Source: Candidatus Omnitrophota bacterium
GTDB taxonomy: Bacteria; Omnitrophota; Gorgyraeia; 2-01-FULL-45-10
NCBI GenBank assembly: GCA_023818895.1
Contig: JAMWCX010000002.1
Coordinates: forward strand, 410,821-442,820
Length of the DNA: 32,000 bases
Direction: 5' to 3'
The position numbers and the translations under genes are program-made. The notes beneath the pieces are model-generated. The model was not told the DNA's origin and ran no database searches. It worked only from the letters and a program-made list of their open reading frames with translations. Below are positions 1,055 to 24,455 of this stretch, in pieces (the first letter of the stretch is position 1; the number at the start of each line of letters is the position of its first letter).

Positions 1055-1115
1055 ACTTTCACCTTTCCTTTTTACATTATTTATATTTTTTGACTATAGA
1101 AGAATATCCTGCGCC

Positions 1116-1159
1116 GGTGACATAATTGTGACAAGCTTGTGAACTCTTTGTGAACTTTT
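1116..1159 (-). promoter_or_regulatory. Four tandem Pho-box-like repeats at exact 11-bp phasing upstream of pstS
   Basis: Plus strand reads GGTGACATAAT TGTGACAAGCT TGTGAACTCTT TGTGAACTTTT, with repeats starting at 1116, 1127, 1138 and 1149. On the coding strand these are TTCACA/GTCACA hexamers, matching E. coli CTGTCA(T/C) and B. subtilis TT(A/T/C)ACA half-sites. A candidate -10 TATAGT lies at 1093-1098 (minus). Confidence 0.65.
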
Positions 1160-1172
1160 AAGCCGTTCAGAA

Positions 1173-2597: not shown

Positions 2598-2634
2598 TAA
2601 ACACCTCTCCTTTTTCATATTTTTGGCTACCCTA

Positions 2635-2853
2635 TTAATTTATATGCTCGAAGGCTGCCTTACGGATCTTCTTGAGTTTATTCTCGATCTCGCGCATTTG
2701 ACTAGCATAATATGCGCGCTGCTCTTTCCATCGCTCATCTGTCTCCATTTGGCAAAGGATCGCTTTAAGGTGATCCGCCTGAGCTCTCACGCTCCCTATT
2801 ATAAGCTCATCTGCAAACAATTCCTCACCCCCTTTCTTATAAACTTGGAGCAT
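2635..2853 (-). CDS. Hypothetical 72-aa charged, helical protein
   Basis: ORF with RBS GAGGGT. Its stop lies 16 nt (by track start 2618; 37 nt from the preferred ATG 2597) before the porin start, and it is co-directional with the Pho block. No recognisable motif. Confidence 0.5.
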   Translation of the reverse strand: MLQVYKKGGEELFADELIIGSVRAQADHLKAILCQMETDERWKEQRAYYASQMREIENKLKKIRKAAFEHIN

Positions 2854-2961
2854 ATAATTACCCTCTATCGCCTATAGAAATTATCCATGTGAGCAAGTTC
2901 GGCATGACAGATTTGTATCAACCAATTCCCAATAGCGCGAATTGCTGTGATTAATAATTCT

Positions 2962-3171
2962 CTAAACATATATCGAGTGCTCCATATCAATGTTTATAGG
3001 ACTAAGTGTGGCAACGTCTTTGGTGCTTCCGCTGCAAAAAACCGGACAGAGTTCATAGAGACTAAAGCAGTAGTTTTCTCTTTCGAACAAAGACGGAACC
3101 ATGCCATCGGCCATGCGATGATTACAAATGGCAAGTTCACTTTTGGAACTTATGCATGGACACAGTGTCAT
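2962..3171 (-). CDS. Hypothetical 69-aa Cys-rich protein (CPC...C-x-H...C...CPVFC)
   Basis: Strong RBS AGGAGGG is 4 nt (3172-3175) upstream of the ATG at 3171. Six Cys and one His are arranged like a metal or Fe-S ligand set. It follows the 48-aa ORF by 28 nt. Confidence 0.55.
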   Translation of the reverse strand: MTLCPCISSKSELAICNHRMADGMVPSLFERENYCFSLYELCPVFCSGSTKDVATLSPINIDMEHSIYV

Positions 3172-3199
3172 TTTCCCTCCTGCAATTACCTAAAATACA

Positions 3200-3346
3200 C
3201 TATTGATCGTCTTCGCAACATCGTTTCCACATTTCAATGATAAAAGCGGTTTTGTTTCGATTAGGCCTGACGAAACGAAATAGTAGCCATAAAAAAGTTA
3301 TCAGCAAAGCGACCGCTATGATTATCTGTAATATATCGCCTATCAT
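3200..3346 (-). CDS. Unlisted 48-aa small membrane protein (MIGDILQIIIAVALLITFLWLLFRFVRPNRNKTAFIIEMWKRCCEDDQ)
   Basis: Below the ORF-track size cutoff; translated by hand. ATG at 3346 is preceded by AAGAGGTGA. It has one TM helix and then a basic tail with a CC pair. It is the first ORF after the second Pho-box set. Confidence 0.5.
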   Translation of the reverse strand: MIGDILQIIIAVALLITFLWLLFRFVRPNRNKTAFIIEMWKRCCEDDQ

Positions 3347-3385
3347 CTCGTCACCTCTTTTTTCACTGCAAGTATAACTTCAAGA

Positions 3386-3429
3386 GGTGACAAAATCCTT
3401 AACGGAATGTAAATTGTGTGTGAACTTTA
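3386..3429 (-). promoter_or_regulatory. Second set of 11-bp-phased Pho-box-like repeats, upstream of the small-ORF/porin unit
   Basis: Plus strand reads GGTGACAAAAT CCTTAACGGAA TGTAAATTGTG TGTGAACTTTA, with repeats starting at 3386, 3397, 3408 and 3419. The outer repeats are identical to those at pstS; the inner two are degenerate. A candidate -10 TATACT lies 9 nt (3377-3385) downstream on the minus strand, similar to the E. coli pho-box/-10 spacing. Confidence 0.5.
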
Positions 3430-3452
3430 CAGAGGCGATGTCAGATAGACTT

Positions 3453-5225
3453 TTAAGCTACTGGGATGGTAAAGCTGAAAGTGGAGCCCTTACCGGGAGT
3501 TGACTGAACCCATATCTGACCGTTATGGGCCTGGACGATATGTTTTACTATAGATAGGCCCAGCCCTGTACCGCCAAGCTCCCTAGAACGGGCTTTATCA
3601 ACCCGGTAGAATCGCTCGAATATGCGAGGGAGGTCTTTTTCAGATATGCCGATTCCGGTATCCGAGATATCGATCTGGACGGCCTTATCCTTTAATGAGG
3701 CGCGCAGAATAACTTTCCCGCCTGCGGGGGTATATTTTACGGCGTTGTCCAGAAGATTTAAAAAAACCTGCACAAGCCGCTTTTCATCCCCCATGACACA
3801 GGGTAAACCGGAAGGAATGTCCAGTGTGACGGCTATCGATTTATCCTTTGCTGATTTTTCCAGAACATTGAAACAGCGCCTTGCTATAGGCGCAATATCC
3901 AGCTCTTCGAGTTCCATTTTCATCTTGCCGGATTCTATCCTGGAAAGGTCGAGAAGATCATCTATCAGGTTCGCCAGGCGATTCGAATCCTGGTAGATTA
4001 TTCCCAAAAAATCCCTTACGGTCTCTTCGCTGTCAGCCTTTCCGTCCAAAAGGGTTTCCGCATATCCCTTGATGCTCGATATAGGAGTGCGCAATTCATG
4101 TGACACGTTCGCCACAAAGTCCTTGCGCATATCCTCAAGGCGCTTGAGCTCAGTAATATCATGAAAGACAAACACGGCGCTTTCAATCTTATTGTCCTTA
4201 ACAATTGGAATACCATTTATGAGAACGGTCTTTTTCTCAGGCATAGAGATTCTGACTTCCTTGGTTATGAACTCATTTTTACCGTTCAAAACCTTGTCTA
4301 CTATCTCTTGAACCTCATTATTCCTTATGACTTCCAGGGGTCGTTTCCCCTCCGGCGGCGAATCGATCAGAAAGAGTTTTCTAATTGACGGATTTGCCAG
4401 TGATATTTCGCCGCGTTCGTTGGTAAGCAATATGCCTTCGAACATACTTGCTAATATCGCTTCCAATTTTGCCTTTTCAGAGGAGAGGTTTTTTACTTCG
4501 GCGCTTAGTTGCTCGGCCATCTCATTAAGCGCGGATGCAAGGTCTCCTATTTCGTCATTAGCATGAATTATCGCCTTGCGAGAAAAATCGCCGGCCGCAA
4601 GGCGTTTGGCGATAACAGACATCTCACATAGAGGACGAGATATCATGATTGATACCAGGAAGCTTGCTCCAAGCGTAGCGATGATGGCAAATATTGTCAC
4701 GGCAGTTATCGCCTTCAACATCTTCGATTCGATCATCTCGATATCAGAAAGCGGGATAGCAAGTCTGAATATGCCGGTTATTTTTTCCTTCCCTAGCGGA
4801 ACCGCCATATAAAGCATATCTTTTTTTATAGTGGTGCTGAAGCGTTTGCTCTGTCCGAAACCTTTTTGAACGGCATTCTGAACCTCGGTCCGCGTTATGT
4901 GATTTTCGATATTCGCCAAACTTTTATCATCAAGTTCCGAGTCACCAATAACGACGCCATCCGGCGCTATTATTGTCGCCCTTGCGCCCAAAGCGGCATC
5001 GATCCTTTTGGCAAGGCTATTGGCACCGGCGGGACTTATCGGCTGGCTTAATTCATTATCCAGGAAATCCTTGCTAAGCAATAGATCCTTTTTGAGGGTA
5101 TCCTGGATGCGCGTTTCGATATATATTTTGAGATTGGTATTAAGGTAAAAATATACGGCGGTCAGAATAATTAATATTAGAGAACAAAAAATAAATGTCA
5201 ACTTCCAGTAGATCCTAACTCTCAT
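3453..5225 (-). CDS. phoR: Phosphate-regulon sensor histidine kinase (PhoR-type)
   Basis: 590 aa. Two TM helices flank a periplasmic domain of about 150 aa, followed by HAMP, PAS, the H-box SHELRTPISSI, the N-box LLDNAVKYT and the G-boxes DTGIGI and GGTGLGLSIV. It overlaps the phoB stop by 11 nt. Confidence 0.85.
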   Translation of the reverse strand: MRVRIYWKLTFIFCSLILIILTAVYFYLNTNLKIYIETRIQDTLKKDLLLSKDFLDNELSQPISPAGANSLAKRIDAALGARATIIAPDGVVIGDSELDDKSLANIENHITRTEVQNAVQKGFGQSKRFSTTIKKDMLYMAVPLGKEKITGIFRLAIPLSDIEMIESKMLKAITAVTIFAIIATLGASFLVSIMISRPLCEMSVIAKRLAAGDFSRKAIIHANDEIGDLASALNEMAEQLSAEVKNLSSEKAKLEAILASMFEGILLTNERGEISLANPSIRKLFLIDSPPEGKRPLEVIRNNEVQEIVDKVLNGKNEFITKEVRISMPEKKTVLINGIPIVKDNKIESAVFVFHDITELKRLEDMRKDFVANVSHELRTPISSIKGYAETLLDGKADSEETVRDFLGIIYQDSNRLANLIDDLLDLSRIESGKMKMELEELDIAPIARRCFNVLEKSAKDKSIAVTLDIPSGLPCVMGDEKRLVQVFLNLLDNAVKYTPAGGKVILRASLKDKAVQIDISDTGIGISEKDLPRIFERFYRVDKARSRELGGTGLGLSIVKHIVQAHNGQIWVQSTPGKGSTFSFTIPVA

Positions 5226-5907
5226 CTTCTTCCTTGAATTTATATCCGAGCCCCCTTACCGTTTCGATGAGATCACCGGATCTGCCCAGCTTTTCCCTAA
5301 GGCGCTTGATATGCGTATCGATGGTGCGGGTATCAATGTCCGAATCCATCTGCCAGACATCAGACAATAAATTCTCTCGCGTCTGAACGCGGCCGCGCCT
5401 CTCTATTAAAGTCGTCAGTAATTTGAACTCCATCTGGGTGAGCTCTATCAACTTATTCTTAACGATAACCTTATGTTTTGGTATATCCACTGTTATGTCG
5501 TCTGCCTTTAAAATATCTTTTTTTACGCTTTCGACCTTACCTCTTTTAAGGATGGCTTTTACTCTGAGCACTAATTCTCTCGGACTGAATGGCTTTACAA
5601 TATAGTCATCCGCACCCAGTTCAAGGCCCACTATCCTGTCAACTTCTTCACCTTTTGCTGTCAACATTATAAGAGGTATATCTTTGAGCCTTTCCTTCTC
5701 TCTTACGGTACGGCAGAGTTCATACCCATCCATGCCGGGAAGCATAATATCAAGGATCATAAGATCGAAATTCTCGGCATCAAGCATCTCGATGGCCTTC
5801 TCGCCGCTTGCGGCAACCGCGCACTCGTATCCGGCCTTCTCAAGGTTAAATTTGACCAGTTTAGATATATTTTTATCGTCTTCTACGATTAGTATATGCG
5901 CTTTCAT
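5215..5907 (-). CDS. phoB: OmpR/PhoB-family response regulator
   Basis: 230 aa. Receiver motifs are ILIVEDD, LMILDIMLPGMDG and KPF. The C-terminal winged helix ends in RGLGYKF. It is adjacent to phoR and pstS. Confidence 0.85.
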   Translation of the reverse strand: MKAHILIVEDDKNISKLVKFNLEKAGYECAVAASGEKAIEMLDAENFDLMILDIMLPGMDGYELCRTVREKERLKDIPLIMLTAKGEEVDRIVGLELGADDYIVKPFSPRELVLRVKAILKRGKVESVKKDILKADDITVDIPKHKVIVKNKLIELTQMEFKLLTTLIERRGRVQTRENLLSDVWQMDSDIDTRTIDTHIKRLREKLGRSGDLIETVRGLGYKFKEEDES

Positions 5908-5932
5908 TATAAACTTTCCCCTTTTTGAGTGT

Positions 5933-5941
5933 ATTATATCA
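5933..5941 (-). promoter_or_regulatory. Candidate extended -10 promoter (TGATATAAT) for phoBR
   Basis: Minus strand reads TGATATAAT about 25 nt upstream of the phoB ATG. No good -35 and no phased Pho repeats were seen upstream. Confidence 0.4.
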
Positions 5942-6079
5942 AAATGGATTAAATTTTGCGAGCTGTAAGGTGGAAAGCCTTTTGCGGATTAATCGCAATC
6001 TGCCATACTGATGAAAACCAGGGACGGTATAACAAACGAGAGTTTTATACAACCTTATGTTTTTTGATACGGCGTTACG

Positions 6080-6772
6080 TTAGATGACGAAAAATATGTG
6101 TGCCAGCACATAGTATATGCCTGCGAGGATAAATATAGCGCCTGTGAATTTGCGGGCATATACCTCGATCCTTGTCACATGGCCGAACCACTTGAAGATC
6201 GACTTAACTCCAAACGCAATAGCCATGGCAAACACCAGGACGGGTAATGCTGTCCCGACACCATAGACAAGCGGCAGGGTAAGGCCGAATTTATGGCCGA
6301 ACGATAACGGCATGAGGCTGCCGAAGTAGAGTGCCGCCGAGATAGGGCAGAAAGAGAGAGCGAAGATAAGGCCCAAAATAAAAGCCCCGCCGAGGCCTGA
6401 GTCGGCCAGCTTCTTTTGTTTTTCATCGGATATGGTGCGGCTTGCAAATTGGAATTTTATGAGGCCAATGAGGTAGAGACCCGTCAGAAGAAGCAGCGGC
6501 CCAAGGATCTTGTTCATGTATTTCTGCAAGAATATGGCGGCCACCGGAACGCTGACTACGGAATAGATGATGGCGAACCCGAGAACGGCATAGGTGGCTG
6601 CCCTGCCCAGCGTATAACATATTCCCGACCAAAGCACGGCCTTTTGATGCTCGATCTTTTTGGAGAGGAACGAGACTGCCGCTATATTCGTCGCGAGCGG
6701 GCAGGGGCTGATGGAGGTAAGGATACCGAGCCACAACGCGGTAAGAAATCCGGTCAGCACTTCATTCATCAC
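6080..6772 (-). CDS. CcdA/DsbD-type transmembrane thiol-disulfide (electron transfer) protein; same architecture as ArsG-family annotations
   Basis: 230 aa with about 6 TM helices. Carries the SISPCPL motif in TM1 and a second FCPIS motif. Its start overlaps the upstream stop (ATGA). Confidence 0.8.
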   Translation of the reverse strand: MMNEVLTGFLTALWLGILTSISPCPLATNIAAVSFLSKKIEHQKAVLWSGICYTLGRAATYAVLGFAIIYSVVSVPVAAIFLQKYMNKILGPLLLLTGLYLIGLIKFQFASRTISDEKQKKLADSGLGGAFILGLIFALSFCPISAALYFGSLMPLSFGHKFGLTLPLVYGVGTALPVLVFAMAIAFGVKSIFKWFGHVTRIEVYARKFTGAIFILAGIYYVLAHIFFVI

Positions 6773-7200
6773 AGCTCTTTCAGATACTTTGATATCTCAT
6801 CTTTGACATAGGCCTTGAACTTATCGCCGCTTCTTAAGAAATCCCATACTTTTCCGAGGTTGTTGAACTTGACCTCTTTTCCGTCTTTCACCAGCGAGAG
6901 CACAACGGATTTAGTAAAGAGCCCATAATCACTTATGTAATGCTTGTTGCCCTTGGTCTCCACATTTATTATTTTCAAAGTAAGCTTCCCGATCGCTTGC
7001 TCGCCCTGAAAGTCGGAATCGACCAATTCCCTGGTCCACTTTTCCATATTGTAGCAACTAGGGCAGCGGAAATTCGTATGGAAGTAATATACGACTACAT
7101 GGTTTGCCTGAGGCGCTGCGGCTTCTGCCGCGAGCACGAACTCTGCGCCACACCAGGCTACAACCGTTACCAACATTAACGCTAATGCGATTTTTTTCAC
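6769..7200 (-). CDS. Secreted thioredoxin-like CxxC protein (ArsF-family-like partner of the CcdA-type protein)
   Basis: 143 aa. GTG start with RBS AGGGAG, a signal peptide, and the motif VVVYYFHTNFRCPSCYNME. Translationally coupled to the CcdA-like gene. Confidence 0.65.
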   Translation of the reverse strand: MKKIALALMLVTVVAWCGAEFVLAAEAAAPQANHVVVYYFHTNFRCPSCYNMEKWTRELVDSDFQGEQAIGKLTLKIINVETKGNKHYISDYGLFTKSVVLSLVKDGKEVKFNNLGKVWDFLRSGDKFKAYVKDEISKYLKEL

Positions 7201-7218
7201 GGTTAAGCTCCCTTTTTA

Positions 7219-7581
7219 TTAAGGATTCTCGCTGATAGTTTTCTTGATGGCTGCTATAGCTTCGGCCGTAGTCTTGTTCCGTATATCGAGCGGTACGTGT
7301 TTCGCCTTACCAAATCCTACTGCTTCAAACGCGTCTCTGAACATCTTCTGCTGCATCAATGGATCGCACGCCGCGATATAGAGCTTGTCTATGTCCTTGT
7401 TATCCAGCAGTATCTTAAGATACCTGTCGCCGTCATCCGCACAAAGCTGAGGGTGTAGAGCGACAAAATCCACGACCTTCTCCCGGCGAAGGGCATTTAA
7501 GACCTCCATCGTATCCATGTTCTTAAACGACGGGCATGTACCCTGGCAGACGCATAGGATAAATCCTTTTTTACCGGCCAT
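7219..7581 (-). CDS. Hypothetical 120-aa cytoplasmic Cys-rich protein (ILCVCQGTCPSF ... LCADDG ... AACDP)
   Basis: RBS AGGAGG. The N-terminal C-x-C-x3-C pattern recalls the CxCG segments of HdrA/MvhD-type redox proteins, but I cannot assign a family by eye. Confidence 0.6.
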   Translation of the reverse strand: MAGKKGFILCVCQGTCPSFKNMDTMEVLNALRREKVVDFVALHPQLCADDGDRYLKILLDNKDIDKLYIAACDPLMQQKMFRDAFEAVGFGKAKHVPLDIRNKTTAEAIAAIKKTISENP

Positions 7582-7590
7582 ATCATCCTC

Positions 7591-7797
7591 CTATTTCTTG
7601 TCCCCGAAAAACGTGATCGCCTTCTGTTCGCAGATTTTGCCGCACCCCTTGCAGAACTCTACGCAGTTTTCGGGATGGGCTACTACCGGTTTGCCATCGG
7701 GGCCTTTTTCAAATACACCGTTAGGGCAAAAGTTGAGACACATCATACATCCGACACATTTCTTACGGTCTATGATCGGATACCAGTTCTTGGCCAT
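7591..7797 (-). CDS. 2x[4Fe-4S] ferredoxin
   Basis: 68 aa with two cluster motifs, CVGCMMCLNFCP and CVEFCKGCGKICE. Confidence 0.85.
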   Translation of the reverse strand: MAKNWYPIIDRKKCVGCMMCLNFCPNGVFEKGPDGKPVVAHPENCVEFCKGCGKICEQKAITFFGDKK

Positions 7798-7806
7798 ATC
7801 TCAAAC

Positions 7807-8187
7807 CTATTTGACTTTCCTCAATTCCTGTTTTATGCGCTTGACGATAAAGAGAATGTCCTGCTGCGACAATTTGAAATTCTTATTCTTGGCTATGCCT
7901 TCCTCAGTTACATCAATGTAATCGGTGATATTGAGGCCGGCGTGTTCCAGGGTCTTTTTCGCGCATTCAACAGAACAACCGTCAATAGCGACTAGCCGTT
8001 TCGCGGACCTCGCCGACTCGATCATGCCGGATATGTGGGCCCCGATGCCGGCAAGGCAGAAGAGAGAACCGACACCCTCCTCAGTCAGATGCACCGCTAC
8101 CCGATTGGCTATCTGGCCGCAGTTTGAGCCTCCCGAACAGGGAAGTATTACAACTTCATTTGCCTGGCACAGACATTCTTTGGCCAT
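7807..8187 (-). CDS. DGC-domain putative zinc/metal-binding protein
   Basis: 126 aa with the motifs LPCSGGSNCGQIANRVA, FCLAGIGAH and AIDGCSVECAKK (the name-giving DGC motif). RBS AAGGAGTG. Confidence 0.75.
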   Translation of the reverse strand: MAKECLCQANEVVILPCSGGSNCGQIANRVAVHLTEEGVGSLFCLAGIGAHISGMIESARSAKRLVAIDGCSVECAKKTLEHAGLNITDYIDVTEEGIAKNKNFKLSQQDILFIVKRIKQELRKVK

Positions 8188-8204
8188 ATATCACTCCTTG
8201 ATCC

Positions 8205-8984
8205 TTAGATTTTTAATTTTTTATACAGCTCTCCGAGAATCGACTTATAAGCGGCTGCGATATCCGCCTCTTTTTCTTTCAGCGGCTTGGCCGGGATCAA
8301 GTCCATTATCTCCGTCTCAGATAGCCCTGACTCGTACATTGCCTTGGCCGCGCCGACTACCATCTTATACAAGCCGTCTTTTGCCTCTATTGAAGATAAA
8401 CCAAATGACTCCGCAATATTTTCTAACTCCTCCCACTGAAACCAGAAATATGTCGGCCCCATCGCGGTCAACATCGCGTATGCTTCGAGCTTCTCCTCGC
8501 TGACAACGGGACAATCTCCAAGAACGCTAAATACGGACTCAACAATCTCCTTGTCGCTTTCGGATAGCGCCTTCGAAAACGCTACTGGATTATATCCAGC
8601 ATTTACTATGGAGCAGGCGTTCGGTATCATCCGGCAGACACGGCCGAAACCGCCCAATAGGGCCGATAGCTTTTCGATCGTAATCTTCGGCGCGAGCGAA
8701 ATTACCATAGCACGCGGCTTGATAAAAGACCTTATCTCTTCCAGAACGCCTGCTATGGCCGGCGGATGCAGGGCGAGGATTATTATCTCCTGCGAAGCGC
8801 TCTTAGAATTATCGCCCCGGACGGTTTCGACCCAGGGAAACCGGCGCCTCAATGAGTCCAGCGCACCGATGTCAACATCGCTGGCGACGATATTTTCCGG
8901 ATATTTGCCGCATCTCTTGAATCCGCCCAGCAATATCCGCGTTACCCTGCCCGAGCCTATAAAACCAATTTTTTTATCTGTCAT
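8205..8984 (-). CDS. Divergent pyrroline-5-carboxylate-reductase-like NAD(P)-binding oxidoreductase
   Basis: Rossmann motif KIGFIGSGRV sits right after the ATG at 8984 (the track's TTG start at 9008 is less likely). It has a ProC-like dimerisation half, but the substrate loop IPNACSIVNAGYNP differs from the usual MPNTP. Confidence 0.7.
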   Translation of the reverse strand: MTDKKIGFIGSGRVTRILLGGFKRCGKYPENIVASDVDIGALDSLRRRFPWVETVRGDNSKSASQEIIILALHPPAIAGVLEEIRSFIKPRAMVISLAPKITIEKLSALLGGFGRVCRMIPNACSIVNAGYNPVAFSKALSESDKEIVESVFSVLGDCPVVSEEKLEAYAMLTAMGPTYFWFQWEELENIAESFGLSSIEAKDGLYKMVVGAAKAMYESGLSETEIMDLIPAKPLKEKEADIAAAYKSILGELYKKLKI

Positions 8985-8991
8985 AACCCGA

Positions 8992-10047
8992 TCAAAACTT
9001 AGGAACAAAAAACCAGAATATTAATCCTGCCACAGTTCCGCATACCCACATCAATGTGGCGTACACCAGAGGCACTCTTGGCTTGACAATTTTACAGACT
9101 CCAAGAATGGAAGGCAGGCTGAGCGCCGGGCCTGTTAAAAGAAAAGCGAGAGCAGCGCCCGTGCCCATGCCTGACTCCAAAAGCCCCCTGACTAACGGAA
9201 CCTCGACCAGTGTAGGGGTGTACATAAACACCCCGATAACTGACGACAGCATTATGGGTAAAATTCCATTACCGAGGTACTTAACTAAAATCCAAGCCGG
9301 CAAAAGAATTTTAACTAATCCGGCACAAATAACGCCAAGCATTATCAACGGAAGCACCATCTTCACAAATTCCCAAGAATAGAGAGACATATTATATAGT
9401 CTTTTTCCAAAACCTAAATTCTCTTGTGGCGCGCTCTCCGCTACCGTATCTATTCGCACCGGCTCAGGTTCAGGAAGTCTATTTTTGAAAATCCTGTCTG
9501 TGGTATAGCCGACAAGGATCCCCGCTGTTATCGCAACGATGATCCTTGCTAAACCGAATTTCCATCCCAAAAGCCCTAATGTGAGAAGGATCGCGGCGGG
9601 ATTATACGCCGGTCCCGTAACAAGAAAAGTGATGGCCGGTCCGAGGCCAGCCCCTCTCTTATAAAGACCGCCAAAAAGAGGTATTATACTGCATGAACAC
9701 ATCGAAAGAAACGGCCCGCCGACTCCAGATACAACGTATGGAGCAAATCCTCTGCCAGAGCCCATAAGTTTTATTATCCTGTCTCTCGGCACAAATTCCT
9801 GAATAGCTCCCGCGGCTATAAACGCCAGAAGAAGGCACAACCAGGAATGTTTCATATAGTCAATGATCGTAAAAACCAAGAACATATGAACGGGTATTTT
9901 GTTCTCTTCCAAAAGTTTTGCGGTTATGACTTTGTTATGCTCCATGGTGGTCTTAAAACCCGACCATGATTCCCCCCACTCATATATTAATATGACTGCA
10001 AATATGAATAATAGTATGCCTATCGCAAAAACCGTCCTTTTATCCAT
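8992..10047 (-). CDS. PF03773/ArsP-type permease, paralog 2
   Basis: 351 aa, polytopic. Carries the motif SMCSCSIIPLFGGLYKRGAGLGPAITFL, with the C-S-C codons at 9691-9699. RBS AGGAGG. Confidence 0.85.
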   Translation of the reverse strand: MDKRTVFAIGILLFIFAVILIYEWGESWSGFKTTMEHNKVITAKLLEENKIPVHMFLVFTIIDYMKHSWLCLLLAFIAAGAIQEFVPRDRIIKLMGSGRGFAPYVVSGVGGPFLSMCSCSIIPLFGGLYKRGAGLGPAITFLVTGPAYNPAAILLTLGLLGWKFGLARIIVAITAGILVGYTTDRIFKNRLPEPEPVRIDTVAESAPQENLGFGKRLYNMSLYSWEFVKMVLPLIMLGVICAGLVKILLPAWILVKYLGNGILPIMLSSVIGVFMYTPTLVEVPLVRGLLESGMGTGAALAFLLTGPALSLPSILGVCKIVKPRVPLVYATLMWVCGTVAGLIFWFFVPKF

Positions 10048-10059
10048 CCTTACCTCCTG

Positions 10060-10293
10060 CTATTCGGAGATCCATTTCTTTATCTCGTCCGGTAGGGGGA
10101 TCCTGCCCGCTGCTTTTATTTTTCCGTCGATCGCGAGGGCGGGAGTGGTCATTATACCGCGGCTTACAATTTGCTGCAAGTCCTCTACTTTTACTATCTC
10201 TGCCTTTATATTTAATTCCTTCGCGGCGGCCTGAGCGTTTTCGTACATTTTTTTACACTTCGGACAGCCCATGCCCAGTATCTCGATCTTCAT
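10060..10293 (-). CDS. Small thioredoxin-fold protein (redox-active disulfide protein 2 type)
   Basis: 77 aa. MKIEILGMGCPKCKK contains the CxxC motif. This is the typical small partner of PF03773 permeases. RBS AGGAGG. Confidence 0.85.
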   Translation of the reverse strand: MKIEILGMGCPKCKKMYENAQAAAKELNIKAEIVKVEDLQQIVSRGIMTTPALAIDGKIKAAGRIPLPDEIKKWISE

Positions 10294-10322
10294 TTTGTGA
10301 TTCCTCCTATTGCTATTGTATC

Positions 10323-10796
10323 TTAAAGCTGTAGAAATTTACACTCTTTATGTTTGACGATAAGAACCGCGCATCCGGCCTTTCTCGAAACCTTATCGAC
10401 TGTGGAGCCTAAAAACGCGTGCCGAAGCTCGCTTCTGCCGTGGCATGACATGACGATCACATCGATACCATGGCTGTGTGCGAACTTGATTATCTCTACA
10501 AACGCGTGTCCTTCTTTGACAACCGCGCCGGCAAATAAGTTCCTTGGAATATAGGACTTGAACTGGTCGAGGCTTCGCTTCTTTTGGCCAACAAACTGTT
10601 TGTGCATCTCATCGCAGATCTTTTCGAGCGGCGGATGGACCTTATGTATCTCTTTGATGTGGAATATATCTTCCTCCACATGCAAGAGATATATCTTGCC
10701 CCCGCAGCATTCGGCAAGCTGCACAGCCGCTTCGAGCGCTTTCTTTGAAAAATGTGAGAAATCTATCGGAACCAGGATCTTTTTAAAGTGCATCAT
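10323..10796 (-). CDS. Universal stress protein (UspA family)
   Basis: 157 aa with KILVPIDFS, DVIVMSCHGRS and GSTVDKVSRKAGCAVLIV (the ATP-binding type USP pattern). Confidence 0.85.
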   Translation of the reverse strand: MMHFKKILVPIDFSHFSKKALEAAVQLAECCGGKIYLLHVEEDIFHIKEIHKVHPPLEKICDEMHKQFVGQKKRSLDQFKSYIPRNLFAGAVVKEGHAFVEIIKFAHSHGIDVIVMSCHGRSELRHAFLGSTVDKVSRKAGCAVLIVKHKECKFLQL

Positions 10797-10810
10797 TCCC
10801 TCCCTTATTT

Positions 10811-12115
10811 TTAGTTAACCATTATTCCGAATACATACCCAACCATAGTCGAAAGCACGACACAGAGCGCGCAGAATGTGAATGTCTTGCGGGGTCCAAG
10901 GATCTTATTGATAACGAGGATGCTTGGCAGGGATAGAGCTGGTCCCGCGAGGAGGAGCGCGAGAGCCGGCCCTTTCCCCATCCCTAAACGCATCAGCATC
11001 TCGACGATTGGTATTTCAGTCAATGTAGCGAAGTACCATAGAGCGCCGATCATTGATGCCACGAAATTCGATAAAAAAGCGTTACCTCCTACGAACGCTG
11101 CGACCGCTTTCTCGGGCAGGATGCCACCGATAAAGCCGGTCACGAACACGCCTCCGAAGAGGAGCGGCACGATCATCATGCCAAAATCCCATGTCGCCTT
11201 CATCCAATCCTTAATTTCGTTTCGAGTGAACCACTTTTTGGCCATGATGAGGACGAAGATAAGCATAAGGCCCGCCAGCGGCCACTTCATCGCGTGAACG
11301 CGCATAACGAAATTGTCTTCAGGTATCACCTTCTCAATATCTTTCTTTTCTAAGCGGACAGCGTCCACCGCCATCTGTCCGTCCGGTTGATATTCTTTGA
11401 CCTCTATGAAGTCCTGGGTCGAATACTGAATGTTCGCCTTCATCTCAGTGCCGCTTTTCATCTTAATGGTGACATCGTTAGTGTTATACCAGTCACTAAA
11501 GACCAGGAACATGATCATACAAAGGAAATAGAGCCCGGTCTTCCAAATAGGCCTGGTCGGATGAGGTGGTGGTGGCATATTCATAGCCATGTTCACGCGC
11601 ACCTGTTCCGTTTTTCGGAAAACGAAGGCCATCGCAAGACCTATAACAAAAGCGAATCCGACCGCGCCGATAACACGGGCAAGCCCTATATCAAACCCGA
11701 GCACGCGCGCCGAAAGGAATACAGCCATGACATTGATCGCCGGCCCTGAATATAGGAAGGCGCTCGCAGGTCCTAGCCCCGCACCCATGGTATAGATACC
11801 GGCAAACATCGGTAGCACGCTGCACGAACAGACCGCCAAAACGATACCCGCGACAGACGCCACCGAATAGGCCATGAAGCGGTTGGCGTCAGGGCCAAGG
11901 TACTTCATAACGGAGGCCTGAGACATAAAGGTGGAGATCGCTCCGGCGATGAACATGGCAGGAACGACGCACGCGAGGGTATGGTTAATAACATACCACT
12001 GGAGGAGCTTGAATGCCTCAAGGATAGCGTTCGTTATTTTCGGGCTTCCCAGCGGCAGGAAATACATAACTAGAAAAATACCCACAAGCCAGTACAGCTT
12101 CTTCAAATCCTTCAT
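10811..12115 (-). CDS. PF03773/ArsP-type permease, paralog 1, with a soluble insertion of about 69 aa
   Basis: 434 aa. Carries the motif AVCSCSVLPMFAGIYTMGAGLGPASAFL, with the C-S-C codons at 11822-11830. A hydrophilic insert spans residues ~208-276 (nt 11288-11494) between the two membrane halves. Confidence 0.85.
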   Translation of the reverse strand: MKDLKKLYWLVGIFLVMYFLPLGSPKITNAILEAFKLLQWYVINHTLACVVPAMFIAGAISTFMSQASVMKYLGPDANRFMAYSVASVAGIVLAVCSCSVLPMFAGIYTMGAGLGPASAFLYSGPAINVMAVFLSARVLGFDIGLARVIGAVGFAFVIGLAMAFVFRKTEQVRVNMAMNMPPPPHPTRPIWKTGLYFLCMIMFLVFSDWYNTNDVTIKMKSGTEMKANIQYSTQDFIEVKEYQPDGQMAVDAVRLEKKDIEKVIPEDNFVMRVHAMKWPLAGLMLIFVLIMAKKWFTRNEIKDWMKATWDFGMMIVPLLFGGVFVTGFIGGILPEKAVAAFVGGNAFLSNFVASMIGALWYFATLTEIPIVEMLMRLGMGKGPALALLLAGPALSLPSILVINKILGPRKTFTFCALCVVLSTMVGYVFGIMVN

Positions 12116-12142
12116 AATACCCCCTCTTACTTTTGTATTAAA

Positions 12143-12463
12143 TCAATTGCCCTCTTTGAGGCCTTTTGTAGGAGGGGCTATCTCACAGCATCCTCCTTCT
12201 ATCCTTATCATCTTTATATTTACGAGACCATCGGCGACCTTTTTACGCGCCGACTCAATTATGCGCGAAAAAGTCGGCCTTGAAATCTTGAGCATCTTTG
12301 CCGCCGTTTCCTGGCGCATGCCGTTTAGGTCGGCAAGCCTCAAAGCCTCGAACTCATCAAGGGTCACAACGACCTCTTCGACCCTCTTATTTTTTTTGCA
12401 TCGCGGGATGAAACGTCTGTCTCCGGGGTTGTATTGGACCCACCGCATCTTTTTTGGTCTCAT
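12143..12463 (-). CDS. DUF134 (UPF0251) family predicted DNA-binding protein
   Basis: 106 aa with RFIPRC, LDEFEALRLADLNGMRQETAAKMLKISRPTFSRIIESARKKVADGL (sigma-70 region-4-like HTH) and a C-terminal GGCCE. RBS GGAGGAAG. Confidence 0.85.
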   Translation of the reverse strand: MRPKKMRWVQYNPGDRRFIPRCKKNKRVEEVVVTLDEFEALRLADLNGMRQETAAKMLKISRPTFSRIIESARKKVADGLVNIKMIRIEGGCCEIAPPTKGLKEGN

Positions 12464-12476
12464 CTCTTCCTCCGAG

Positions 12477-12523
12477 TTATGAACTTATGTTCATAAGTAT
12501 ATCACGCCTTCCTACTTTGTCAA
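12477..12523 (-). promoter_or_regulatory. Sigma70-type promoter plus 20-bp palindromic operator of the DUF134 operon
   Basis: On the minus strand, TTGACA (12523-12518) is followed by a 16-nt spacer and TATACT (12501-12496). The perfect palindrome TTATGAAC-ATAA-GTTCATAA (TTATGAAC-TTAT-GTTCATAA as printed on the plus strand; 12477-12496) then covers the predicted start site, 13 nt before the ATG region. Confidence 0.6.
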
Positions 12524-12550
12524 ATATATTTTTCTGCAGTTACCGACGTC

Positions 12551-12591
12551 CCAACAAAAAGGCCCTGACCGAATACTGCCGATCAGGGCCC
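12551..12591 (-). terminator. Rho-independent terminator after the amidohydrolase gene, insulating the DUF134 operon
   Basis: The minus strand carries the hairpin GGCCCTGATCGG-cagtatt-CGGTCAGGGCC (12561-12590) followed by TTTTTGTTGG. Confidence 0.65.
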
Positions 12592-12746
12592 TAAACATGA
12601 TATCTCTCTAATGTAGAGGTAGGCCTATTATTGGGGTCCCTCTCGCATTAGCCGAGGGGAAACTTCTCGAATTCCAAATAACGCTTATATACAGGAATTA
12701 CCCTGATATATGCATAATATTGAAACTTTAGAGAGGTATATCCCCG

Positions 12747-14443
12747 CTAATTTGCGATAAATATTTTCTCTCCGTTCACGTAAGTAGCAAGAACCCTCAT
12801 ATCTGAGATTTTATCAGGAGGTACTCGCCGGGGATTATCGCTCAATATGATCAAATCAGCAAATTTGCCAACTTCGATGCTTCCCACTTCTTTTTCCATG
12901 AACAATTCGTAAGCGGCGTTAATGGTATAGCCCCTGATCGCGTCATCAATAGATATGCATTCTGCCGGCCCCAAAACATTACCGCCTATAGTCTTCCTCG
13001 TGACTGCTGTTTGAAGCACTTCTATCGGCTTATTAGGAGAGGTCGGACCGTCAAAATGAAAAGCAAAGTTAACTCCGTATTTCTTCGCCGAAGCAACCGG
13101 GCACCAGCGCCTGCCTCTTTTATCACCGACTAAGGTAGGTATGACATCTCCCCAGTATTTAACATGAGCCATAAGAAAAGTAACCTGAACTCCCAGCCTC
13201 TTAGTCCTTTCCAGCTGGTCATCGCGTATCATAGGTACGTGTTGTAAAGCAATTCGATGGTCCGGCCAGGAATATTTTTTTAAACCATTCTCTATCGCAT
13301 CCAAAGCCATCTGAATGGCCTGATCTCCCTCCGCATGAATCTCAGCACCGCGCCTATCCTTCAAACAATTATCAATAAATGTTTGTAGCTCCTCTTGGGT
13401 AACATAAGGTTTTTGCATATAACCGGGCGGGGTCTCCATAATTTTTACCGTAGTATCATTCACAAGATAAGGCTCGGTCATGGTTATGGTGCCGGTCCAG
13501 GGCGAACCATCAATAAATATCTTTCCTCCGTTAACCTTAACCATCTCATCGCCCTCAAAGGGCTGCCATTTTTCGTAATCCACGGCATAACCGCGCAGCC
13601 TTATGGCTTTATATTTCTTAGCCGTTTCTCTATAAATCTCATAAAACTCCGGCAATAAAAATCTGTCTGTAACTCTAGTAATACCATCTCTTGCATTTAT
13701 TTGCCAGGACTTAGCCATGTACCGGACGGATTCGTCCAGATTCGAGAGCTTAGTTTTTAAGAACGGCGCGATAGCCATCTCTATTGGAGCGCCCCGATCA
13801 AGTCTACCGTTTAATTCGCTGTTTGCGTCATGGCCGAAGGTCCCGCCTGCTGCACCGCCAGGATTGGGGGTATTCTTGTCAATTCCAGCCAGTTGGAAGA
13901 CCTTGCTGTTTACAAAAGCGATGTGATTACTGTTCCCCATATAAAAAGAGGATTATCTGGGGCCATGGCATCAAGCTCTTGTATAGTCGGATTCTTGAGA
14001 CCCTTTTGCACAAGAGGATCCCAGCCAAAGAAAACCAGGTATTCTCCCGGTTTTGCGTTGGCGATCCTATCCTTAATAACCCTCATGATCTCTGCGCCGT
14101 CCCTATAAAAGGCCGGCCGGATATCAGTTGTAAAATTCTCTATCACCATTTTCTCGTAGGGATGTGAATGGGTTTCCACGAAACCCGGCATGAGGGTCTT
14201 CCCTTTTAAATCAACCATCTTCGTCGCCTGACCTCTGTGTCTTAAGACTTCTTTTTCGCTACCTACGGTAATGATCTTGCCGTCTTTAATCGCAACGGCT
14301 TGCGCTTCGGTCATGTTTTTATCTACGGTGAGAATGGTGCCGTGATAAAAGATCGTATCCGCTGATGGTTTCTTAGCGCAACCAGAAAAAATGAATGCTA
14401 AAGATAAAATAATAAAAATACCTTTTAATTTTTTACAAAACAT
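12747..14443 (-). pseudogene. Amidohydrolase-3 family metal-dependent hydrolase (lipoprotein), split by a 1-nt frameshift
   Basis: The N-terminal part runs from the true ATG at 14443 to 13910 and carries the lipobox LAFIFSGC and the metal motif ETHSHP. The C-terminal part (13940-12747) continues the same family. The frames join if the T5 run (A5 at 13943-13947 on plus) is T6, giving ...DNPLFYMGNSNHIAFVNSK... and about 565 aa. Confidence 0.8.
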
Positions 14444-14465
14444 ATATTCCTTCGTTTTATAAAAA

Positions 14466-14544
14466 TGGGGTGGGCGAGGGGATTTGAACCCCCGACACCT
14501 TGGGCCACAGCCAAGTGCTCTAGCCAAGCTGAGCTACGCCCACC
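14466..14544 (-). tRNA. tRNA-His (GTG) with encoded G-1 and CCA
   Basis: GGTGGGCGTAGCTCAGCTTGGCTAGAGCACTTGGCTGTGGCCCAAGGTGTCGGGGGTTCAAATCCCCTCGCCCACCCCA folds as a cloverleaf by hand. The anticodon loop is CTGTGGC. Confidence 0.95.
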
Positions 14545-14622
14545 GAATTTCTTTCTAGTTTTGCATGATTCGAAATTCGTCCCGAGAAGCCAACAACCAA
14601 TAGCATTCTAGTGACTATCGCT

Positions 14623-14982
14623 CTACTTCTTCGTATCCAGCCACTCGTTCCACTCGGCGACCTTGCCGTCGACAAGCTTGAAGGTAACAGACCTCACCCC
14701 TTCTGCCGTCGCGCTGATTTGGTATGTCCAGGACTCTTCCTTACCCGCCGCTGTCACCTTGCTCTGGGCAAACCTGTAGAATAAGGCGTCTTGTTTGGGC
14801 TTGCCTTCCGGCGGATAGCCGATCAAAGAAACGAGCTGATCCTTAGTCATGCCGACCTTGAGGCCGTCGCCCTGGAGCGCCTCGGCGATCTTTTTATTCT
14901 CAAACAACCCTGCGTACGCCGTAGCGGAGAACATTATCACACACGCAAGGGCGCAGACAAGAACTATTTTTGCCATGGCCAT
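14623..14982 (-). CDS. Secreted SmpA/OmlA (BamE-like) domain protein
   Basis: The ATG at 14982 has RBS GGAAGGGGGA; the longer track ORF is an artefactual extension. Signal peptide ends in ATAYA-G. The motif LKVGMTKDQLVSLIGYP is typical of the SmpA_OmlA fold. Confidence 0.55.
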   Translation of the reverse strand: MAMAKIVLVCALACVIMFSATAYAGLFENKKIAEALQGDGLKVGMTKDQLVSLIGYPPEGKPKQDALFYRFAQSKVTAAGKEESWTYQISATAEGVRSVTFKLVDGKVAEWNEWLDTKK

Positions 14983-15821
14983 GTCCCCCTTCCTATAATA
15001 TGCACATCCCTTTGCGGGAACGGAATCTGTATGCCTCCCGCTCTGAAAGCATCGAATATCGCCTTGTTCAGGTCGAATTTGACATCCCAATAACTTGACT
15101 GAGCACACCAGAGCCTCGCATAGATGACAACGCTTGAGTCGGCGAATTCTTCGATGCCTACCTTGGGCGCCGGTCTGGAGGCGACCCTTTTCTCGCGCGA
15201 AATGGCGTCCTTTACGATACTGAGCGCCTTATCCATATCCGACGAATAGCTCACCCCGACCTTAAGGTCAAGCCGCTTGAACTCGGAATAGTTGTGCATT
15301 ATTTCGCCGATGATCTTTTTGTTCGGGATGATGATGCGCGTCCCGTCAAGGGTGCGCATGATGGTACGCGCAAGCGTCATGTCCTCGACCTGGCCGATAT
15401 TTCCTCCGACCTCAAGGATATCGCCGACCTTAAACGGCTTAGTAAATATGAGAGTTGCACCAGCAGCATAGTTCGATAGCGGCCCCTGAAGCGCAAAGCT
15501 TGCGCCGAATCCTATGGCACCTAGGCCAGCTATAAAAGGCGCAATGGTAATTCCAAAATTGCCGAGGGCTATAAGAAGCGCTGTGGCCATTATTAGAAGC
15601 CGCACGACATCGACAAGAAATTTCGTTATAGTGACATCGGCTTTCTTGGCAAGGAGGAAAAGCTGGATTATCTTGCCGATAAATCTGGCAATGACCCATC
15701 CGGCAAGAAGGATCAAGATACCGCCTATAATGTTAAATATATTCTTCGATATGAAATCTAAAACGATATAGGCAAGCTCTTGCGCCGTGCGCCCCTGCAT
15801 CCCAAATAAGGCGTTACCCAT
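14964..15821 (-). CDS. mscS: Small-conductance mechanosensitive channel (MscS family)
   Basis: 285 aa with three N-terminal TM helices. The pore/beta-domain motif is PFKVGDILEVGGNIGQVEDMTLARTIMRTLDGTRIIIPN. RBS AAGGAGA. Confidence 0.9.
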   Translation of the reverse strand: MGNALFGMQGRTAQELAYIVLDFISKNIFNIIGGILILLAGWVIARFIGKIIQLFLLAKKADVTITKFLVDVVRLLIMATALLIALGNFGITIAPFIAGLGAIGFGASFALQGPLSNYAAGATLIFTKPFKVGDILEVGGNIGQVEDMTLARTIMRTLDGTRIIIPNKKIIGEIMHNYSEFKRLDLKVGVSYSSDMDKALSIVKDAISREKRVASRPAPKVGIEEFADSSVVIYARLWCAQSSYWDVKFDLNKAIFDAFRAGGIQIPFPQRDVHIIGRGTWPWQK

Positions 15822-15861
15822 TGCGTTCTCCTTTATATTTACAAATTTCGACTTGCTAAAA

Positions 15862-15938
15862 TGGCGTCCCTGGCCTGATTCGAACAGGCGACCCTCTGCT
15901 TAGAAGGCAGATGCTCTATCCAGCTGAGCTACAGGGAC
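15862..15938 (-). tRNA. tRNA-Arg (TCT), CCA encoded
   Basis: GTCCCTGTAGCTCAGCTGGATAGAGCATCTGCCTTCTAAGCAGAGGGTCGCCTGTTCGAATCAGGCCAGGGACGCCA. The anticodon loop is CTTCTAA. Confidence 0.95.
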
Positions 15939-16058
15939 ACTTAAAAATAAAAATGGCTGTGCCATGAACCCAAGCGTTTGCCCTGTACCGGAGCAAAAAA
16001 TAAGTTTTTGCAACCGGCACAGGGTACAAACCAGATTGAGGCAAACGCGAGTGGTTCA

Positions 16059-16135
16059 TGGTCGGGGCGGACAGATTTGAACTGTCGACTTCTTGGTCCC
16101 AAACCAAGCGCGCTAGCCAGCTGCGCTACGCCCCG
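16059..16135 (-). tRNA. tRNA-Pro (TGG), CCA encoded
   Basis: CGGGGCGTAGCGCAGCTGGCTAGCGCGCTTGGTTTGGGACCAAGAAGTCGACAGTTCAAATCTGTCCGCCCCGACCA. The anticodon loop is TTTGGGA. Confidence 0.95.
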
Positions 16136-23318: not shown

Positions 23319-23403
23319 TGGTGCGGAAGAAGGGAGTCGAACCCTTAAGGTTTTACCCATACGGTCCTGAGCCGTACGCGTCTGCCAATTCCGCCACTTC
23401 CGC
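23319..23403 (-). tRNA. tRNA-Leu (CAG), long variable arm, CCA encoded
   Basis: GCGGAAGTGGCGGAATTGGCAGACGCGTACGGCTCAGGACCGTATGGGTAAAACCTTAAGGGTTCGACTCCCTTCTTCCGCACCA. The anticodon loop is CTCAGGA. Confidence 0.95.
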
Positions 23404-23462
23404 CTAAAATTAGCTTGTTTAGTATACCCTAAAAGACAGGCTCTGTCAATTATGGCCCCTTC

Positions 23463-23491
23463 TTGAACTTATATTAAAATTATGATATAGT
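23463..23491 (+). promoter_or_regulatory. Candidate sigma70 promoter of smpB
   Basis: TTGAAC (23463-23468) is followed by a 17-nt spacer and TATAGT (23486-23491). The ATG lies only 12 nt after the -10 and there is no SD. Confidence 0.5.
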
Positions 23492-23503
23492 ATTCAGGCC
23501 ATA

Positions 23504-23947: not shown

Positions 23948-24040
23948 TAAGAATGTTCTTTGGCATATGGGTAGGCTCAAAAATCTGATTTTTTAACCGC
24001 AGCTTTTTGGAATAATTTCACCCATATAAAAAACTTTTTC

Positions 24041-24455
<415 letters not shown>

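Follow-up and report, generated by a model that had tools for sequence, protein, structure and literature searches.

The window analysed here is a stretch of 32,000 nucleotides (nt) from a Candidatus Omnitrophota bacterium (assembly GCA_023818895.1, contig JAMWCX010000002.1, positions 410,821 to 442,820), and all coordinates below refer to it. Its minus strand carries, from 6080 to 12463, eleven co-directional genes that read as one transcription unit. In order of transcription they code for a helix-turn-helix (HTH) regulator of the DUF134 (UPF0251) family, a permease of 434 amino acids (aa), a Usp domain protein, an ArsE-type mini-thioredoxin, a second permease of 351 aa, a P5CR-like protein, a DGC-domain protein, a ferredoxin, a 120-aa protein (called H120), an ArsF-family exported protein and an ArsG-family membrane protein. 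The whole block is probably a one-unit detoxification operon for arsenic, chiefly trivalent (organo)arsenicals, which has the architecture of an ars operon but is headed by DUF134 instead of ArsR. This identity is proposed because ArsE, ArsF and ArsG pass the NCBIfam cut-offs for these families, because both permeases belong to PF03773, and because each family of the block is linked to ars genes (ArsR, Acr3, ArsC, ArsM, ArsA/D) at other loci.

The eleven open reading frames (ORFs) lie where an earlier note, made from the sequence alone, had placed them, and the gaps between them range, as it had reported, from -4 to +29 nt. In gene order they measure 27, 14, 29, 12, 7, 17, 9, 9, 18 and -4 nt, the last one reflecting a 4-nt overlap of ArsG with ArsF. 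The gap of 7 nt assumes that the P5CR-like gene starts at ATG 8984, which is also the start chosen by NCBI for an identical 259-aa protein; if TTG 9008 were used instead, the gap would become -17. Good Shine-Dalgarno-like sequences precede eight of the eleven genes, those of the ProC-like (P5CR-like) gene, the ferredoxin and ArsG being weak. Within the operon the GC content is 0.46-0.52, slightly above the 0.42-0.45 of the sequence on either side of it, and no integrase was seen.

A sigma-70-type promoter is located at 12496..12523 (minus strand). It consists of a -35 TTGACA (12523-12518), a 16-nt spacer ending in TG, and a -10 TATACT (12501-12496), and reaches an 11/12 match with the consensus. 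No better match occurs in the region, and no other strong one within 5800-12900. The TTGACA/-10 arrangement recurs in related DUF134-headed loci. The operator, a perfect 8+4+8 palindrome TTATGAACATAAGTTCATAA at 12496-12477 (minus strand), shares its first base with the end of the -10 hexamer and runs downstream. The chance expectation for this operator is 0.17 matches per window at three mismatches or fewer, the perfect palindrome is unique in the window, and no second operator copy was found there. Upstream, the intrinsic terminator of the preceding amidohydrolase gene (12559..12592, minus strand) forms a stem of 14 base pairs (bp), 8 of them G-C, around a 6-nt loop and is followed by a T-run; three other loci (L001, L003 and L087) have an equivalent hairpin ahead of the promoter. 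Thus, the single promoter and operator that had been predicted, together with a terminator insulating the block from upstream transcription, are all present. A search for internal promoters or terminators that might split the block found none comparable to the outer ones, but only intragenic stems of 5-7 bp and 9/12 promoter matches. Rfam searches of the operon detected neither a riboswitch nor a leader RNA. No terminator was found 3' of ArsG, where the 172-nt gap to a PhoB-like gene has only a -10-like TATAAT; read-through from ArsG into the PhoB-like gene is therefore possible, but, given this element, not required.

The first gene (12143..12463, minus strand, as are all genes of the block) codes for a DUF134 regulator that scores 80.4 bits with PF02001, against a cut-off of 27, and belongs to a subfamily with a cysteine triad (C22/C92/C93). 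Like the P5CR-like protein, it is 100% identical to a protein of a Candidatus Omnitrophica metagenome-assembled genome. The motifs IEGGCC and PxCK are invariant among near homologues. The 120 nearest sequences (at least 63% identity) carry the C-terminal IEGGCC in all cases but one, which has GGGC, and Cys22, Cys92 and Cys93 are invariant in an alignment of 20 sequences. In the wider family the situation is different: 110 of 150 representatives have Gly at position 22, and mostly [PNAST][VYI] is found at positions 92-93. Since the triad is confined to near homologues and absent from the generic family, it marks one DUF134 subfamily.

A metagenome scan with this regulator recovered at least 546 relatives. 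The best 80 loci were retained, of which 79 had enough upstream sequence and 36 at least 3 kb downstream. The operator TTATGAAC-N4-GTTCATAA, counted at two mismatches or fewer and mostly with none, is present in 75 of these 79 DUF134-CC loci, 12-22 nt ahead of the start codon. In L009 and L136 the operator shows symmetric changes in both arms, which is what recognition by a dimer would predict. The genes downstream are of the ars type in 36/36 loci: a PF03773 permease in 28, ArsE, ArsF and ArsG in 26 each, Acr3 in 23, an ArsM-like protein in 21, DGC in 9, ArsC in 7, a ferredoxin in 5, H120 in 3 and ArsR in only 1. The commonest order is DUF134-permease-(53-aa ORF)-ArsM-ArsE-(DGC)-ArsF-ArsG-Acr3-(ArsC), and the first gene after DUF134 is usually a permease, most often the 434-aa form. 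The near-absence of ArsR (1/36) fits a replacement of ArsR by DUF134, which in this lineage usually heads the ars operons that contain Acr3, ArsM and ArsC. For this reason, the view that the block is not a standard ars operon, DUF134 taking the place of ArsR, does not hold. An ORF of 53-54 aa without family match recurs in about 8 of the 36 DUF134 loci, including L001 (1618-1779), L003 and L006, usually just ahead of arsM; it is absent from the window.

The two permeases belong to PF03773 (ArsP_1), with 266 bits for the 434-aa protein (10811..12115) and 202 bits for the 351-aa protein (8992..10047), against a cut-off of 32.3. In the former, Cys49 and Cys96-x-Cys98 are invariant in 16/16 homologues; in the latter, Cys117-x-Cys119 is invariant in 41/41. 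The 434-aa permease also scores below the equivalog cut-offs of the SO_0444 and SaoE models. Between its membrane halves it has an insert of about 110 aa (residues ~175-290), partly predicted to be soluble, that its 351-aa paralogue lacks. The pairing of a permease with ArsE is widely recurrent. The gene between the first permease and ArsE (10323..10796) codes for a Usp domain protein (PF00582, 86 bits); related ars clusters include Usp genes and, in one case, an Acr3-Usp fusion.

The mini-thioredoxin (10060..10293) is a 77-aa protein with a CPKC motif that reaches 104.4 bits with TIGR00412 ('MTH895/ArsE family'; cut-off 62) and 99 bits with Thioredoxin_3. At the other end of the block, the ArsF-family protein (6769..7200; NF040494, 102.9 bits, cut-off 60) has a CPSC motif and a signal peptide, its N-terminal hydrophobic signal being visible in the sequence. 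The last gene (6080..6772) codes for a CcdA/DsbD-type membrane protein of the ArsG family (NF040495 equivalog, 276.6 bits, cut-off 200; DsbD_2, 60 bits). Pfam and NCBIfam profile searches confirmed the family assignments made for the ORFs in the earlier note; the description of these two proteins as a signal-peptide CxxC protein and a CcdA-like protein stands, and the curated cut-offs sharpen it to ArsF and ArsG. The CxxC motif is kept in 50/52 ArsE and 16/16 ArsF homologues, and both cysteine motifs of the ArsG transmembrane segments (SPCPL and FCP) are kept in 29/29 homologues when a register shift is allowed. An apparent replacement of the second ArsG cysteine by Ser in 17/29 sequences was rejected, being a register shift of the alignment; both cysteines are conserved. 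The proposal of thiol-lined permeases beside a thiol relay from cytoplasm to periplasm is thus borne out at the residue level, the cysteines of ArsE, ArsF, ArsG and the permeases being kept in essentially all homologues.

The most economical reading of these three proteins is a thiol relay that would run from ArsE in the cytoplasm through ArsG in the membrane to ArsF in the periplasm. It is based on the CcdA-type cysteines retained in ArsG, on the export signal of ArsF, and on a replacement seen in Geobacterales, where a canonical thioredoxin plus CcdA pair occupies the ArsF-ArsG position found in Omnitrophota. For instance, the cluster of Geomobilimonas luticola has the order ArsR-Acr3-ArsA-ArsD-H120-ArsF-ferredoxin-ArsR-DUF2703-permease-ArsE-thioredoxin-CcdA. 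In ars clusters of Geobacterales, such as L027 (11502-11906), the gene between ArsR and the PF03773 permease regularly codes for a DUF2703 protein (132 bits), which represents another uncharacterised ars-linked family.

The ferredoxin (7591..7797) is a 68-aa protein of the 2x[4Fe-4S] type with matches to the Fer4 family, and each of its eight cysteines is kept in at least 81 of 83 homologues. Its neighbour, H120 (7219..7581), was first described as a CxC protein of unknown family. The CxC motif is indeed present, but the family can be named, since profile and fold matches show that H120 is homologous to the N-terminal Fe-S domain of HdrA, here standing alone. A profile built from 24 homologues matches HdrA chains of the PDB with E values from 8e-5 to 7e-3, and the AlphaFold2 model (predicted local distance difference test, pLDDT, 90.5) has HdrA proteins as its top 7 Foldseek matches, with TMq ~0.7. 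Five cysteines of H120 are invariant (C10, C12, C16, C47 and C72), and four of them (the CxC pair, C47 and C72) align with HdrA cysteines, which we take to be ligands of a [4Fe-4S] cluster. The identity of H120 across phyla is 65-90%.

A scan with the H120 alignment, restricted to one genome per GTDB species, gave 80 loci, which with L001 and L002 make 82. They span Omnitrophota, Planctomycetales, Margulisiibacteriota, Geobacterales/Desulfuromonadales, Thermotogota, Thermoanaerobacterium, Caldiserica and one archaeon. These loci, with flanks of up to 10 kb on each side, were searched by tblastn with the 11 window proteins and with reference ArsD, ArsA, Acr3, ArsC, ArsM-like methyltransferase and ArsR sequences, matches being counted anywhere in a locus. 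The ferredoxin adjoins H120 in 77 of the 82 loci. ArsR is found in 55, an ArsE-type thioredoxin in 46, Acr3 in 31, the 351-aa type of permease in 30, ArsC in 27, ArsG/CcdA in 25, the 434-aa type of permease in 16, ArsF in 14, ArsM-like proteins in 12, Usp in 9, ArsD in 8, DGC in 7, ArsA in 6, DUF134 in 4 and the P5CR-like protein in 2. Where an ArsR gene lies directly upstream of the ferredoxin-H120 pair, its product has a CxC metalloid site (18/18). In the closest relatives, the genes of the window lie within evident ars clusters. L001 shows the order DUF134-ArsM-like-DGC-ferredoxin-H120-ArsD-ArsA-DsbD-Acr3-Usp-ArsC, and L006 has a methyltransferase with 355 bits, against an arsenite-methyltransferase cut-off of 263, besides ArsR and an Acr3-Usp fusion.

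The DGC-domain protein (7807..8187; PF08859, 115 bits (114.8)) is rich in cysteine, its residues G70, C71 and C75 being invariant. Of the 36 DUF134 loci, 9 have its gene placed between ArsE and ArsF. No PDB relative of it was found by sequence, and a literature search linking DGC to arsenic yielded nothing relevant. The idea that DGC and H120 could be paralogues with one Cys-rich fold was discarded, the hhalign probability being 1%. The preceding gene (8205..8984) codes for a 259-aa NAD(P)-binding protein of the P5CR superfamily (F420_oxidored, 47 bits). It cannot be regarded as a true ProC, as it scores 100.9 bits with TIGR00112, under the equivalog cut-off of 196.75. Moreover, IPAKPL stands where ProC has SxGGTT, presumably its substrate-binding loop, and where the bona fide proC of L157 has SSKGGTT. 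The ProC-like match in L157 was rejected as an ars-linked copy; it belongs to a housekeeping yggS-proC-MTAP cluster. The 259-aa subfamily is found in ArsR-headed operons of Syntrophales, of Acidobacteria-like and of other contigs. Its genes adjoin ArsE-type thioredoxin genes in L169 and L170, a thioredoxin/DsbD pair in L171, and the ferredoxin or H120 genes in L039 and L082; in L169 and L171 the operon also carries a PF03773 permease and Acr3. The ArsR-headed cluster of L170 (3482-8640) comprises a GcvH-like lipoyl protein, after whose gene DGC is located, two DGC proteins in all, OsmC, the P5CR-like protein and three thioredoxin-family proteins, which suggests a lipoyl/thiol-based redox role of the DGC and P5CR-like families.

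In none of the about 170 loci examined does the complete order of the eleven genes recur. On the question of gene co-occurrence, therefore, the complete block is not conserved as a unit, but its modules are linked to ars genes across loci, and by gene content it is a mosaic of such modules. A variable region can be seen between ArsE and ArsF. In the DUF134 loci this slot is empty or holds DGC, a ferredoxin, ferredoxin-H120 or DGC-ferredoxin-H120, and in the window a permease and the P5CR-like gene are found there as well. Because of this variability, the genes of the slot are taken as optional accessories of the relay for electron input and thiol handling. The linear electron path proposed in the earlier note, from NAD(P)H through Fe-S proteins to thiols, is hypothetical.

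The following mechanism can be proposed. A DUF134 dimer on TTATGAAC-N4-GTTCATAA, abutting the -10 hexamer, would block transcription, and the binding of As(III) or methyl-As(III) to Cys22, Cys92 and Cys93 would free the repressor from its operator. The two C-x-C permeases, whose family is clear, would expel trivalent arsenicals, probably under modulation by Usp. ArsE would pass reducing equivalents to ArsG, and ArsG to the exported ArsF, the direction being deduced from conserved residues and location. Such a relay may keep periplasmic thiols or arsenical adducts reduced, and the published activity of ArsEFG on aromatic arsenicals, nitro-reduction with efflux, may be one expression of it. To judge from gene position, the P5CR-like, DGC, ferredoxin and HdrA-N-like proteins might be an optional cytoplasmic module for electron input and thiol handling, feeding or protecting the ArsE relay in an anaerobe. 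The reductive metalloid detoxification and export role guessed at the outset fits this scheme.

Several facts weigh against the arsenic operon and relay proposed here. A tblastn search of the window found no ArsR, Acr3, ArsM or LMWP-type ArsC, ArsB not being among the queries, and therefore the link to arsenic rests on homologues elsewhere. Neither permease reaches an equivalog cut-off, and the nearest curated models are a Cu/Zn exporter (SO_0444) and SaoE. As(III)-responsive autorepression through the DUF134 triad would be modelled on ArsR, within which three-Cys As(III) sites arose several times, but metal binding by DUF134 is a prediction, and a search of the accessible literature found no experimental or functional study of DUF134/UPF0251. 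The only published function of ArsE, ArsF and ArsG is reportedly that of a nitroreductase plus an efflux permease, with no thiol relay. The weakest step is the accessory role of the slot genes, since the roles of the ferredoxin, H120, DGC and P5CR-like proteins are deduced from position alone; in addition, a Rossmann-only P5CR fold is unable to reduce disulfides directly, and Thermotogota have a minimal ArsR-ferredoxin-H120 operon with no ArsE nearby.

This last observation leads to the alternative that survives best, although we consider it rather improbable: the ferredoxin and H120, with DGC and the P5CR-like protein, could form an independent arsenic-stress module that is a passenger here and supplies no electrons to the relay. 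It could provide As(III)-tolerant electron carriers, Fe-S repair, or an As(III) metallochaperone with a CVCxxxC site. ArsR-ferredoxin-H120 indeed stands alone in Thermotogota and Thermoanaerobacterium, with no ArsE, ArsF or ArsG within 10 kb, and the C10-V-C12-x3-C16 arrangement of H120 resembles the CVCxxC site of ArsR. The ars island of the Omnitrophica locus L006 (6076-7763) contains SufC-like, SufBD/SmsB-like, OsmC-like and lgt genes between ArsG and ArsR-Acr3, and the Suf-type genes hint at Fe-S damage control under arsenic stress. An archaeal DGC homologue (L065, 7722-8396) has a long Met-rich C-terminal extension that ends in GCGCGCC, a tail typical of soft-metal or metalloid binding. 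However, four of the five invariant cysteines of H120 align with the presumed cluster ligands of HdrA, its obligate ferredoxin partner (77/82 loci) points to electron transfer, and in DUF134 operons these genes lie exactly between ArsE and ArsF.

A second alternative, which we regard as unlikely, retains the published view of ArsEFG as a roxarsone/nitarsone system: ArsE and ArsF would be a nitroreductase acting on trivalent nitro-aromatic arsenicals, ArsG would efflux the amino products, and the Fe-S and NAD(P)H proteins would give the six electrons that reduction of the nitro group requires. ArsEFG of Shewanella putrefaciens 200 is the subject of Chen, Zhang & Rosen (2019, Environ Sci Technol 53:6182), as cited in PMC9144182. 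NCBIfam calls ArsF a 'nitrophenyl compound nitroreductase subunit' and ArsG an 'aromatic aminobenzylarsenical efflux permease', and the window proteins match the models so named. According to these names, the Shewanella system reportedly handles roxarsone and nitarsone by means of a nitroreductase and an efflux permease; it is also general knowledge that low-potential ferredoxins reduce nitroaromatics. However, the substrates in question are synthetic feed additives, yet the module is spread in uncultured Omnitrophota, Geobacterales, Margulisiibacteriota, Bacteroidota and others. Besides, ArsG retains both CcdA-type transmembrane cysteines, ArsF is an exported CxxC protein, and the thioredoxin plus CcdA replacement of Geobacterales fits electron transfer better than substrate efflux. 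If the thiol relay is correct, it may itself underlie the phenotype published for ArsEFG.

A new non-ars reductive machine for another electrophile or metalloid (tellurite, selenite or diamide) or a redox-gated uptake system, without characterised counterpart, is very improbable: the missing ars genes of the window, the weak permease matches to the Cu/Zn (SO_0444) and SaoE models, and the uncharacterised DUF134 family speak for it, but all families of the block are repeatedly found beside Acr3, ArsC, ArsM, ArsA/D and CxC-type ArsR, and three of its proteins reach the cut-offs of a characterised ars system. The claim of the earlier note that the operon has no characterised counterpart must be abandoned. 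ArsE, ArsF and ArsG pass the NCBIfam cut-offs of a published system, and RefSeq already annotates units of the type ArsR-thioredoxin-ArsF-ArsG-permease, as in plasmids of Fulvitalea and Prevotella, where the Prevotella unit continues with ArsC-Acr3. By the standard for refutation that the earlier note set itself, ArsEFG and ArsP thus provide a characterised counterpart in part.

What appears to be new in the arsenic detoxification operon, and worth testing, is the DUF134 Cys-triad regulator with its operator, the very widespread and highly conserved ferredoxin/HdrA-N-like pair placed under arsenic control, and the re-reading of ArsEFG as a relay. A bolder interpretation, to which we give less than even credence, is that Cys-triad DUF134 proteins are an unrecognised family of arsenical-sensing repressors that has a defined operator and replaces ArsR in ars operons of the Omnitrophota type, and that the ferredoxin/HdrA-N-like pair, together with DGC and the P5CR-like protein, is a low-potential reductase module dedicated to anaerobic ars systems. 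Its task would be to regenerate the ArsE relay or, possibly, to reduce pentavalent organoarsenicals, for which a reductase has long been sought.

These results provide a first functional context for DUF134/UPF0251, a widespread family, with a candidate ligand site and a precise operator, and TTATGAAC-N4-GTTCATAA could serve as a new biosensor part. The residues of ArsEFG and its non-orthologous replacement give it the look of a CcdA-type thiol relay, although it is currently annotated as nitroreductase and efflux permease. The anaerobic arsenic-resistance toolkit of many phyla gains at least four uncharacterised families (the ferredoxin/HdrA-N-like pair, DGC, P5CR-like and Usp). As a caution for annotation, an ars operon may exist without arsR, arsB and arsC.

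Directly downstream of the operon, the minus strand carries a phosphate-type cluster (113-5907) that comprises a PhoB-like response regulator (5215-5907), a PhoR-like histidine kinase (3453-5225), a Porin_5 porin (1173-2618) and a PstS-like binding protein of the PBP_like_2 family (113-1054). Because arsenate enters cells through phosphate systems, this adjacency to an ars operon may be functionally meaningful. Upstream, an Amidohydro_3 amidohydrolase gene (12747-14527, minus strand) is split into two ORFs, 13910-14527 and 12747-13940, with a 31-nt overlap, probably due to a frameshift, a pseudogene state or an assembly error. The 5' end of its longer ORF call overlaps tRNA-His (14466-14543). 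This tRNA, tRNA-Arg, tRNA-Pro and a doubtful antisense tRNA-Gln call are located 2-4 kb upstream of the operon (14466-16135); tRNA-Leu and a tmRNA (24041-24454) lie further off, within 23319-24454.

Different known systems can be compared with the operon. The canonical ars operons under ArsR control (arsR-acr3/arsB-arsC, to which arsM, arsA or arsD may be added) share with it a first gene coding for an autorepressor released by the metalloid, an operator over the promoter and an export-based detoxification, although autorepression and export are here deduced. Close relatives of the window operon also hold Acr3, ArsC, ArsM, ArsA and ArsD. The differences are that ArsR, Acr3 and ArsC were found neither in this operon nor elsewhere in the window, and that the regulator belongs to an unrelated HTH family with its own operator.

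The ArsEFG system of S. putrefaciens 200 is similar in that the mini-thioredoxin, the exported CxxC protein and the DsbD/CcdA-like protein of the window pass the ArsE, ArsF and ArsG models, and in that ArsF and ArsG are adjacent, in the window being translationally coupled. However, in the window ArsE is five genes away from ArsF, genes for Fe-S, DGC and P5CR-like proteins are inserted, the regulator is DUF134 and not ArsR, and the host is an uncultured anaerobe. The mechanism is also different, a relay being proposed here in place of the published nitroreductase and efflux. The CcdA/DsbD pathways (CcdA-ResA and DsbD-DsbC) resemble the window system in the single cysteine that ArsG has in each of two transmembrane helices, in a cytoplasmic thioredoxin-like donor and an exported CxxC acceptor, and through the true thioredoxin and CcdA pair that holds the same place in ars clusters of Geobacterales. 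In contrast to them, ArsF is no recognisable thioredoxin by Pfam (E = 0.11), and the window system is arsenic-linked, without a context of cytochrome c maturation.

ArsP of Campylobacter jejuni (Chen et al. 2015), a methylarsenite efflux permease according to the summary in PMC6205960, is likewise a PF03773 membrane permease with conserved cysteines in a transmembrane segment that occurs in ars operons with Acr3. While ArsP has an adjacent CC pair, the window permeases carry C-S-C and are two paralogues, one of them with the insert of about 110 aa; the likeness is at the family level, no equivalog cut-off being reached. Finally, H120 shares with HdrA of the methanogen heterodisulfide reductase (PDB 5ODC, 7BKB and 9SFI) the fold and four cysteine positions of the N-terminal Fe-S domain, and a literature search combining HdrA-like proteins and arsenite returned nothing relevant. 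H120 differs from HdrA because it comprises only the domain of residues ~1-125, without the flavin adenine dinucleotide (FAD)/thioredoxin-reductase core and without the inserted ferredoxin domains, because it has the extra invariant Cys16, and because it is encoded with a separate ferredoxin, under the control of ArsR or DUF134.

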